This document shows, one piece after another, positions 36,001 to 39,000 of a stretch of DNA of 64,000 nucleotides. The stretch covers positions 5,413 to 69,412 of the forward strand of contig CAYQCC010000002.1 in assembly GCA_964415895.1 (NCBI GenBank), given 5' to 3'. Source of the DNA: an uncultured Candidatus Saccharibacteria bacterium. GTDB taxonomy: Bacteria; Patescibacteriota; Minisyncoccia; Phycocordibacterales; UBA1006. Position numbers: made by a program. Within the stretch, counting starts at the first letter, position 1; every line of letters begins with the position of its first letter.

Positions 36001-39000
36001 TGTGTAAGTGCAGGACGTACTGTTGTTTCATCAACAACAATTTTTACTTGTGAGAAATCAACATCACCAGATTCAAGATTGAATTGCGCTCGGATGATCT
36101 GACCTCTTTTGCCGTAATCACGTTTATATGCAGCGGCCAAAGACTGCTCGATCGCTTCAATGATGGCAGCTTGAGGGATTTTTTTCTCGACTTCGATTTG
36201 TTCAAGAGTTGTCTTTAAAATTTTTAGATCAAATAACATATATTTTATTAGTCACCTGCGTTACTTCGCTTCAGGCTTATCTGTTTTATGATTCTGCGTG
36301 ACCGACAAGTGTCCCTCACGTCCGCTTTGGGCGGACTGCGGGTTCGTACTCGAATCATAAAACAGACAAGCCTTGTGCTCGTATGTGCGGGATCATTATT
36401 ATTTTTTAATAAAAAGTCCGAGAGAGGACTATGCGGCAACCATACCACACCTGTGGAAAACTTTCAAATGTGTTTTATTGCAGTATTTTTTGCAAGCGTG
36501 ATATAATAATGACATTACTCGTAACTTATTTTTTTATGAAATGGAATGATATCCGCGAAAAAATTAAAAAGCCAGTTGATTCGATGAACGTACGCACAGA
36601 AAAATCTGTAGCTATTAATTCTAATCCTTCGGAGTCGCCTGAACGACACCGCACTGTTTCCAATCGAGCCATTTCATTAATAATAGGTGCGATTCTTGTA
36701 TTGATCATCATTATTATAATTTGGTTTATGCAATCGCGAAAAGTTGCCGACATGGGACCTGCAACTGATGCAGGATTAACTCGAGAACAAGCACAAGATG
36801 CGCAAGGATTTTTGATTCAGGCTCAGCCTAAACCAATGACTGAATCAGATGTAAAAGAGGTTGATGAATTTTTCAAATCGGTCGAACTTAAAAACAGCGC
36901 TACTTTAGCGGATCCAGCCAATTAATTGCTAGCGATCATATTATTATGAATAAAAAAATACTTTCAAAAATTTTTTCAGGAATCGTATGCCTTACATTGG
37001 TTATTCCAGTGATTTCAGGTATTGGTGCCCCGCAGATTGCTGAAGCAGCGGGACCTGTTCATCATGCAAAGGGATGGGCGTTCAGCGATATGCCTGACCA
37101 AAGCGAAGCAGCAGTAGGAGTAGGATGTACTCGTGAAAATATCGTGCATTTTAACTGTGCACAAGGACTTGGATGGATTAGTATGGCAAGTAGTAATACT
37201 AATTCAGGAGGTGGATCATATGAAGTAACGCTTGATCCTGTAACCGGGAAATTTGGTGGTTATGCATGGAGCGAAATGGGCGGATGGGTAGATTTTGCAC
37301 CATCTGCAACTCCTCCTCAAAATTCCCATACCGTAGCTCGGTCTGCATTTGTTGACCCAGCTTGTTTGGCGGATAAAACTAAAACATGTGATATCAAAGG
37401 ATGGATTCGTTTTGTAAACGGTGGAATTGGTCAGTGGGACGGGTGGGTCAGTATGGATGCTCGAAATCCAACCCTTGTAACAGGAGGTACTGACGATACG
37501 GCTTATAGCGTCAAGCTATTACCAGAAATAAATGGAATTAGAAAATTTTCAGGATTTGCATACGGTGATTGGGTGGTAGGATGGGTTGATTTTGGCAAAG
37601 CACAACTAGAACTGACTGATGTGTGTCCTGATACAAAATTCGTTGTTCCTACGGATCCTAAAAAGACAGGAATAGATCCAAAAACAGCAGGAGTGCAAAC
37701 AACAATGCCAGCAGGATATTCAGTAAAGGACGGCTTGTGTGGAATATTCGGATGTACTGACAAACTAGCGACTAATTATGAACCCAAGGCAACTATAAAT
37801 GACGGCAGCTGTACTTATATTATAGAATGTCCGGACGGAACACCGGCTCCTAATAACGACCCTGATCAGTGTCCACAACCTCCGACATGTACGCCAAAGA
37901 GCGATGATTACAATCCATTCTTCAAGGACTGTCGAACATGTCACCCAGGTACTGCAAATTACGATGATCAAACAGGACTATGTGAACCAGTGATCCCAAC
38001 ATGTCCAGACGGATCTGCAATACCACCAGGTGGTTGTCCAGGAGAAACCAATGTATGTACAACCACAAGTCCTACCTACAACCCAGTCTTTAAAGATTGT
38101 CGCGAATGTCATCCAGGTATAGCAAATTACAACGCCACAACAGGGCAATGTACTGTTACGGTACAATGTGAAACAACCAGTCCTGATTACAATCCTATAA
38201 CAGAAGACTGTCGAACATGTCACCCAGGTGTTGCTGGATATAACGATCAAACCGGACGATGTAGTGTTCCTGGCAAACGCAAGGCACCGATCATTAAAGA
38301 AGTTTAAAATATACATAATCATATGAAACTCAAATTTTCTTACATGGCATACGCAGTTGTTCTGATAGCTTTGGTTATCGGGGTTTCGCGTACGTATGCA
38401 TTAACAGGGCCGACAGGATCAGCGCCTTCGCAGCCAACCATGTATGTTCCGGTTAATAACTCACCTGAACCTCAGACTAAAAAAGGATCGTTCCTTTCCG
38501 GAGCTGGATTCGGAGCCGGATTTCGCCAGGTTTCCAATTTTACCACTCCACCAACTTATTCAGATTGGGCATTACTTGCAAATAACGGAGGTATCAAGTC
38601 AGAGAACGCAATTGTATCACCATGGGGATTTTTCACTTTTGGAATCTTAACAGGAACAGGATCATCTGTTTCTGTAGGAAGTAGTGATGCAGATTCGTCC
38701 CTGCTTCCAACTATCGACCAGCTTGCATCTACAGGTACATCACTTAAATTAGATATGGTAGGACGAGGAACAGGAAATAATTCAGCTTCTGGAACGACAG
38801 GAATGAGTATTCTTGCAGGAAACAACAATAGTTGTACGAGTTATGTCACTGTTCGTGTTAATGCGCCTGCATTGAAATTCTCAAAAACAGATTCAAGTGA
38901 TGCAGCAGTTGATCATGCAGATGTAATTGCGAGAGGTATTCAATTAAAAGGAGGAAGTCCCGCAAAAGACAGCGTATTAGTTTCTATTGATGCGCAAGGG

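Follow-up and report, generated by a model that had tools for sequence, protein, structure and literature searches.

A structured palindromic repeat beside nusA belongs to a widespread, apparently undescribed family of Patescibacteria

What is the long hairpin that separates the start of nusA from a small membrane-protein gene in an uncultured Candidatus Saccharibacteria bacterium, and is it a local peculiarity or one copy of something larger? The hairpin, here called copy D, lies on the + strand at positions 36273-36373 of the window, by which we mean the whole 64,000-nucleotide stretch of contig CAYQCC010000002.1 (assembly GCA_964415895.1) that was analysed. The original prediction, made from the sequence alone, had described it as the most elaborate of four copies (A to D) of an autonomous structured element, and had argued against a classical riboswitch. 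As set out below, the copies have a common three-way junction fold supported by covariation, and D is one copy of a family of structured palindromic repeats that is widespread in, and apparently undescribed from, the Patescibacteria (CPR bacteria), a group with very small genomes in which few mobile elements or non-coding RNAs have been recognised.

A covariance model (R1) was built from ten copies with a structure drawn by hand, and a first sample of 33 copies was fitted to this model to give alignment A3. Standard pairs made up 92.6% of the pair cells in this alignment, 16 of the 25 pairs showed changes on both sides, and the covariation score was 0.395, compared with 0.116 after shuffling and at most 0.10 when the partners were slid. 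A joint fold with RNAalifold also showed shared structure beyond the flanking palindrome, the absence of which would have spoken against the original prediction: an independent prediction on the 33 copies recovered the outer stem P1 and the helix P3, and the four window copies alone gave the CCC/GGG helix and a variable hairpin. The long outer stem P1 leads into a conserved internal loop (UGC/UC), a 3-bp helix P1b (GGA/UCC) and one unpaired A, followed by the hairpin P2 (CG-CAAG-CG), the helix P3 and a junction strand UUCG(G), which completes the three-way junction. In 25 copies the middle pair of P1b is G-C, in 4 it is U-A and in 2 it is A-U, without a break in any copy; some copies have, instead of the canonical P2, hairpins with 16, 23 or 53 extra nt. 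The base of P3 (CCC.CA.G / C.UG.GGG) is invariant across copies, whereas its distal hairpin is different in every copy (with 79 extra nt in one of them), and the three distal pairs show 11-13 double changes each. The complete element measures ~90-130 bp around a GC-rich asymmetric core of ~50 nt, and the inner part of the stem (T-run...GTTC / GAAC...A-run) is common to many copies, whereas the outer part is copy-specific. RNAalifold also proposed a 5' hairpin (UGCG-GAA-CGCA) competing with P1b and P2. This hairpin, a possible alternative conformer, was not adopted, as it lacks double changes and could not form in three copies that have long P2 insertions (L044, L067 and L086; loci outside the window are given by L numbers). 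R1 weakly matches a class II tRNA (11 bits) and GGGTTCG resembles a T-loop, but the T-arm-like pairing is lost in L082 while P1b is kept, and we judged this likeness to be superficial.

Copy D itself reads, in order, AGGCTTATCTGTTTTATGATTC-TGCGTGACCGACAAGTGTCCCTCACG-TCCGCTTTGGGCGGA-CTGCGGGTTCGTACTC-GAATCATAAAACAGACAAGCCT, with 22 stem positions around the conserved blocks, and all blocks named in the original prediction were present and enclosed by the stem. The stem is real, and consists of 21 Watson-Crick pairs and a single A.C mismatch (36279/36367); the boundaries first given for it (36274-36372) omit the outermost A-T pair. That D has the longest stem did not hold up, since copy B has 22 perfect pairs with complementarity continuing over 44-nt arms, and its description as the most elaborate copy was not borne out either. 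The 5' module is indeed 3 nt longer in D (TGCGTGACCGACAAGTGTCCCTCACG) than in A and B (TGCGGAACGCAAGCGCCCTCACG), and the P2 hairpin exceeds the canonical CG-CAAG-CG by the same 3 nt; the CAAG centre, thought to be tetraloop-like, is present in D within a 5-nt loop (ACAAG), and in the D orthologue of L134 P2 reads CG-GCAAG-CG. P3 of D is closed at its base by CCC36313-15/GGG36340-42, CA36317-18/UG36337-38 and G36320/C36336, and is topped by a distal hairpin of 5 bp (TCCGC 36321-25 / GCGGA 36331-35) with the loop TTTGG. Folding of D was much stronger than that of shuffled sequence, with z-scores of -7.3 (+ strand) and -9.0 (- strand) when folded as RNA, and of -7.6 and -9.4, respectively, when folded as DNA. 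The motif CCCTCACG-N(5-30)-CTGCGGGTTCG has three exact occurrences in the window, with none expected.

A search of the window with R1 returned copies A, B, C and D, all on the + strand, which is G-rich and presumably leading (Table 1). Copy A is located between the start of a xerC-like gene (- strand) and an open reading frame (ORF) of 542 aa, copy B between a DUF2238-like gene and an RNase J-type gene (ATG 54913), and copy C between the start of a HIT gene (- strand) and recJ. Copy C is a short form, with CCC-CAA-GGG in place of CCC-UCACG-hairpin-CUGC-GGG, and the same short form is found at L086:2080-2150 and L133:1322-1391. The longest ORF of the RNase J-type gene starts at a TTG within copy B and reads through the copy (MRNASALTHLWCCGFGPQ...; 54820-54912); the conserved start of this gene is ATG 54913, with the readthrough of copy B as a likely source of mis-annotated N-termini.

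Beyond the window we found ~35 further copies, in Patescibacteria only, labelled Saccharibacteria, Paceibacteria or Kaiserbacteria. An exact-pattern scan of one genome per species gave 115 loci, of which 11 were true copies and ~100 were set aside as chance matches in GC-rich genomes; ten of the 11 true copies were from metagenome-assembled genomes (MAGs) labelled Saccharibacteria, Paceibacteria/Paceibacterota or Kaiserbacteria, and the remaining one (L114) was labelled only 'uncultured bacterium'. A stricter pattern matched 17 metagenome contigs, all 17 with true copies, and had no match in viral contigs. The window itself is ~95% identical to contigs of a MAG labelled 'Paceibacterota', and its NusA is 78% identical to the match P0041; the source is a Patescibacterium, for which the labels of the MAGs conflict. 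With Rfam 15 the whole window gave a single match at the gathering threshold, a tRNA at 19968-20038, and permissive scans of D and B (E up to 10) gave microRNA-precursor and other chance matches far below threshold, so that known RNA families, including riboswitches, tRNA, hammerhead, twister, twister-sister, pistol, hatchet and HDV-like RNAs, were dismissed. Copy B had no match in 5,426 complete Escherichia coli genomes (blastn, word size 11), and an origin from phage, plasmid or E. coli was likewise rejected, as there were no matches in phage records, plasmids and E. coli genomes; a literature search found no description of this repeat family.

The distribution of the family is patchy. R1 found no copies in 70 kb from four relatives (RNase J 79-89% identical), versus four in the 64-kb window, and no canonical copies in 43 kb from two other relatives. 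[quoted passage not shown] There is also turnover of subtypes at a single site: upstream of nusA, a D-type copy is present in the window and in L134, a canonical copy in L135 and the short type in L133, and the derived characters that the short type of L133 has in common with copy C and L086:2080 make an independent decay at this site improbable. Between DnaA boxes (TGTGGATAA) and rpmH, the copies at L030:6798-6890 and L125:904-996 occupy the same site with flanks that are 96% identical and an identical core, and differ at all 15-17 variable positions of each arm, with the arms perfectly paired in each copy despite these differences. Candidate target duplications were seen at L114 (ATTTAC...ATTTAC), L126 (ATCACT/TTCACT) and L030/L125 (GGCC).

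Some copies lie within genes. At L118 the whole element including both arms (126 nt, 42 codons, no stop) is in frame within infB, as part of the linker that joins domain II to the IF-2 domain; the IF-2 ORF is otherwise complete and retains all Pfam domains. This is a palindromic repeat in frame inside a functional gene, as in Rickettsia palindromic elements (RPE). Relatives that are ~70% identical have a palindrome with homologous arms and the remnant GCGGAGCGCACAAGCG at the same place, from which it follows that this insertion is old and decaying. At L137:10882-10951 the infB linker holds an in-frame palindrome, its perfect arms of 17 bp enclosing a 36-nt centre that includes GCGGAGCGCACAAGCG, which is probably the decayed orthologue of the element intact in L118; a nested insertion into an older palindrome was considered and rejected, as the alignment instead suggests such an orthologue. 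Several IF-2 homologues have mirror-image peptides (EEKIA...AIFSE) at this spot. A probable second in-frame genic copy is L123, where the reading frame runs on from the middle domain of a Mur ligase to the element, inside which the contig ends. By our own reading, five of the six frames of the core consensus are open, and a 31-aa window peptide used to search for further in-frame copies among 1.8 billion representative proteins had one irrelevant match.

The outer arms are 21-47 bp long, often perfect and different in every copy: the ~11 inner positions (T-run, GTTC/GAAC) are common to most copies, L118 being an exception, whereas no two copies have the same outer 10-30 bp, the best local score of any pair being 11. 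When D is compared with L134, there are 4-5 differences per arm, with three pairs changed on both sides and one mismatch in each copy. The maintained pairing can be read in two ways, as selection for the hairpin or as correction of one arm against the other. Two sources of the arms were tested and rejected, as three arms had no exact match in viral contigs (anti-phage spacers) and the window arms had no match in the rest of the window (copying from elsewhere in the window).

The genes next to the copies (among them nusA, xerC, HIT, recJ, RNase J, rplF/rplR, rpmH and infB) are unrelated, and the arrangements include tandem sense (10), tandem antisense (3), divergent (6) and convergent (2), with the element commonly filling the whole intergenic spacer. 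Hence the argument against a classical riboswitch or leader was well founded, as the four window copies and ~30 others lie beside unrelated genes in all gene arrangements and mixed orientations. With regard to D, the ATG downstream of it (36537, conserved in orthologues) is 164 nt away, close to the 160 nt first reported, and the + strand gene has its own -10 region near 36510, which together with the ATG is kept in the orthologous spacers. The positions of this -10 region and of a sigma-70-like promoter directed towards nusA place D upstream of the promoter of the + strand gene and, as the reverse complement, within a probable nusA leader of ~200 nt, in which it is most probably transcribed. 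The small hairpin between the nusA promoter and D is a possible NusA-dependent attenuator of the nusA leader, predicted from its sequence and separate from D. A second CCTGCG upstream of D does exist, at 36255-36260 and not at 36254, but it is unconserved in the orthologous spacers and complementary to a Shine-Dalgarno-like motif (AGGTG) located 12 nt ahead of the nusA ATG, and is thus not part of the element.

Table 1. Coordinates in the window of the four copies, of the parts of copy D and of the features between D and its neighbouring genes.
Feature	Position	Strand	Remarks
Copy A (core 15259-15309)	15236..15333	+	R1 match 15236-15324, 87.4 bits, E 3e-21
Copy B (core 54821-54871)	54793..54900	+	R1 match 54798-54886, 91.5 bits
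Copy C, short form (core 46277-46309)	46248..46339	+	R1 match 46255-46324, 27.2 bits, E 2e-4
Copy D	36273..36373	+	R1 match 36272-36366, 63.6 bits
D, 5' arm of outer stem P1, AGGCTTATCTGTTTTATGATTC	36273..36294	+	21/22 positions paired with 36352-36373
D, conserved internal loop UGC, facing UC 36350-36351	36295..36297	+	near-invariant in the 33-copy alignment A3
D, P1b 5' strand GUG, partner UAC 36347-36349	36298..36300	+	middle pair covaries family-wide
D, variant P2 hairpin, C36303-G36311 and G36304.U36310, loop ACAAG	36302..36312	+	
D, P3	36313..36342	+	distal pairs covary, base pairs invariant
D, junction strand UUCG	36343..36346	+	canonical copies UUCGG, short form UUUC
D, 3' arm of outer stem P1, GAATCATAAAACAGACAAGCCT	36352..36373	+	pairs with 36273-36294
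Small terminator-like hairpin and U-run between nusA promoter and D	36415..36430	-	conserved in orthologues
Sigma-70-like promoter TTGAAA-17-TATGGT (TG-extended), towards nusA	36439..36467	-	conserved in orthologous spacers

The patchy presence, the in-frame infB copy, the turnover at one site and the probable transcription in either orientation suggest a selfish repeat rather than a dedicated RNA gene, and these are also the properties that the label 'autonomous structured element' leaves out. On balance we lean, without strong conviction, towards the family of D being a selfish, non-autonomous palindromic repeat of the RPE/ERIC/MITE kind with an unusual architecture. Its copies would arise through DNA insertion by some enzyme, and the core would owe its conservation to recognition of the folded strand by the insertion machinery or by a different conserved host factor, with the complementarity of the arms kept by selection on the hairpin or by hairpin-templated correction. 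Inserted copies would be tolerated where they do little harm, i.e. in spacers, leaders and protein linkers, and their transcription in either orientation would give a long RNA hairpin which may incidentally affect processing or stability, in the case of D that of the nusA leader. A bolder version, which we consider quite unlikely, is a new kind of mobile or templated structure instead of a MITE in decay, in which the core would be the recognition module of a Patescibacteria-wide enzyme and the stem would be regenerated or rewritten at each event, e.g. by fold-back or template-switch synthesis; such rewriting would explain the perfect, copy-specific arms that differ between strains 96% identical around them.

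Several observations weigh against a selfish repeat. No two copies at different loci have common outer arms, as ordinary copy-and-paste would give, most copies are without a target-site duplication, and no transposase or partner gene was identified, with nothing transposase-like noticed beside the copies at the loci examined. The relatives with empty sites are 75-79% identical at the DNA level, so that loss is formally possible. Orthologous sites have kept their copies, with compensatory changes, both in the nusA leader and in the rplF-rplR spacer of the ribosomal protein operon (L001 and L086, flanks 86% identical), a stretch of 89 nt of copy B is 100% identical in relatives for which the flanks have 95% identity, and the core is near-identical between MAGs labelled Saccharibacteria and Kaiserbacteria and has ~65% GC in genomes of 37% GC, a stronger constraint than junk would be expected to show. 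The persistence, core identity and compensated pairs fit a host function at least as well, and the corresponding alternative, which we hold to be unlikely but still a serious contender, is a host-serving structured RNA module, possibly a domesticated repeat, of which the P1 duplex and junction would be bound by a conserved Patescibacteria protein such as RNase III or another RNA-binding factor, for processing, stabilising or insulating between genes or in leaders such as that of nusA. In addition to the core being near-invariant across classes and its pairing being kept by double substitutions, including the three compensated P1 pairs between D and L134, this alternative draws on the excess of sense over antisense orientation of the model strand in tandem contexts (10 vs 3) and on the G.U pairs of the model strand in P1b, P2 and P3. 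Against this stand the 10 A.C versus 0 G.U mismatches of P1 on the same strand, the occurrence of both orientations, with D, A and C beside - strand gene starts and probably transcribed as antisense, the copies inside coding sequence, and the close relatives that do without the B and C copies with no visible replacement.

The mixture of G.U and A.C favours neither strand overall, which would also suit a function at the DNA level, where a recombinase, or a protein that serves replication or chromosome organisation, would act on the folded single strand or a cruciform, in analogy to integron attC, the CTX-phi attP and REP/BIME. Folded as DNA, neither strand does better than the other, arms of such length and perfection are found more typically in DNA palindromes than in RNA stems, copy A adjoins a tyrosine recombinase gene, and the L030/L125 copy lies between DnaA boxes and rpmH. 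We nevertheless give this explanation little credence, as the attC architecture is reversed (centre conserved, arms variable; ends GTTC...GAAC instead of RYYYAAC...GTTRRRY), cassette arrays are absent and no recombinase is a consistent neighbour, in-frame genic copies fit a chromosome-organising role poorly, and the location of all four window copies on the leading strand is a weak argument (4/4, p = 0.125). Conserved junction nucleotides, variable stems and dispersed copies resemble small self-cleaving ribozymes, and the hypervariability of the arms between the near-identical strains L030 and L125 would fit a copy-specific stem acting as the programmable sequence of some effector; such a new catalytic or guide-like RNA is nonetheless very improbable, because there is no Rfam ribozyme match even at E up to 10, the short form is conserved without half of P3, the arms gave no exact match in the viral contigs (three arms) or elsewhere in the window, and the in-frame genic copies speak against a guide role. 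Finally, an ordinary intrinsic (bidirectional) terminator or a chance palindrome, as might be thought in a window rich in long perfect terminator-like palindromes and with many copies directly after stop codons, is refuted by recurrence and covariation, and we give it practically no weight: D, A and C lie between divergent gene starts, none of the D, A, B and C stems is followed by a T-run (no U-tract after that of D), the polarity is opposite to that of a terminator, since the 5' arm holds the T-run and the 3' arm holds the A-run, and a conserved 50-nt core recurs across classes.

The palindromes of the window are of note in their own right, as many are long, perfect and of the bidirectional-terminator type (A-run, stem, tiny loop, stem, T-run), at 44953-45002, 48970-49018, 8099-8138, 17376-17414, 34312-34348, 19922-19957 and other positions. 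Their symmetry often exceeds what termination needs, one having 25-bp arms without a loop, a hint of some general process by which palindromes may be made perfect or lengthened. An insertion of the element into the tips of existing bidirectional terminators was considered and rejected, since the polarity of the T/A-runs is wrong for this and the outer arms have equal counts of A and T (14 vs 14). Elsewhere in the window, ~2.5 kb at 56350-58912, including a 585-aa ORF (56493-58250), is absent from the contig L129, which is 95% identical and in which the two flanks adjoin each other; this difference is an indel between close relatives. The searches also brought up other sequences: a different repeat (...GGCAGCCCCTCACGGTC(A/G)AC...CTCTGCGGGTTCGGGGC...), which matched the search pattern via two short common blocks, recurs on several contigs (L026, L060, L071, L098 and L109, from MAGs labelled Planctomycetaceae or Chitinophagaceae), and two Phycisphaerales MAGs (L051:224-268 and L066:1210-1252) have in common a conserved stretch, CACCTCACGCCAGACCCGC(T/C)CCCTCACGA...GGGCTGCGGGTTCGGTCTGTCATTCGTTTGTGC, which may be an unrelated structured RNA. 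The copy at L127:899-988 has 28-bp perfect GC-rich arms and is located in an ORF extending past a cytochrome oxidase subunit I domain; a cytochrome oxidase gene is unexpected in Patescibacteria, and the contig is either from another phylum or carries an acquired gene.

A repeat of ~100 nt with a core that is near-identical from Saccharibacteria to Kaiserbacteria implies a conserved, undescribed molecular partner. Through their sites, in the nusA leader, in a ribosomal protein operon, next to DnaA boxes and in frame in infB, copies can touch core gene expression, and those in frame can add peptides to essential proteins; the element also causes annotation errors, e.g. the spurious N-terminal extension of the RNase J-type protein via copy B.

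Of the known repeat systems, RPE are palindromic repeats found in spacers and in frame in unrelated protein genes, where they add a peptide at tolerated positions (PMC10969869). By description the resemblance includes ~100-150 bp palindromes, the reduced genome of a host-dependent bacterium and the lack of a known transposase, and the infB linker copy of L118 parallels the in-frame RPE insertions. RPE differ in being from another host phylum and in that the copies of a family are alike along their whole length, whereas here just the core and inner arm are common, and the genic fraction looks much lower here (2-4 of ~40). ERIC and Correia repeats are processed by RNases, with the RNA hairpins of ERIC, which is conserved across genera, affecting mRNA decay and those of Correia/CREE being open to cutting by RNase III (PMC10969869). 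As with our family, ERIC (IRU) of the enterobacteria is an imperfect palindrome of ~127 bp with a sequence conserved across genera and a copy number that is highly uneven between relatives, has long and short variants caused by internal indels, and is located in either orientation in transcribed spacers and occasionally within genes; there is however no sequence similarity (copy B by blastn against the E. coli genomes), and ERIC is without the strongly asymmetric conserved junction core and the copy-specific arms. MITEs such as Correia/CREE are also short, non-coding and dispersed, with inverted repeats at their ends and a presence that varies among relatives, but of the terminal inverted repeats that define them, with their conserved sequence, a shared counterpart is apparent here for ~11 inner positions alone, and in place of regular target-site duplications there are candidate duplications at 2-3 copies; we know of no parent insertion sequence for the Patescibacteria repeat. 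Like integron attC sites, the copies are structure-defined sites of variable sequence and maintained pairing, often right after a gene; unlike attC they are dispersed singly and lack R''/R' core sites, cassette arrays and a neighbouring integrase, and whereas the ends of attC are conserved and its centre is variable, the opposite is true for the Patescibacteria repeat. Similarly, REP and REPIN have conserved arms (GTAG) and a variable loop, whereas here the arms vary and the centre is conserved. An invariant core between copy-specific, perfect arms is thus the reverse of the classical MITE and REP architecture, and makes this family a tractable case for how bacterial palindromes arise and stay perfect.

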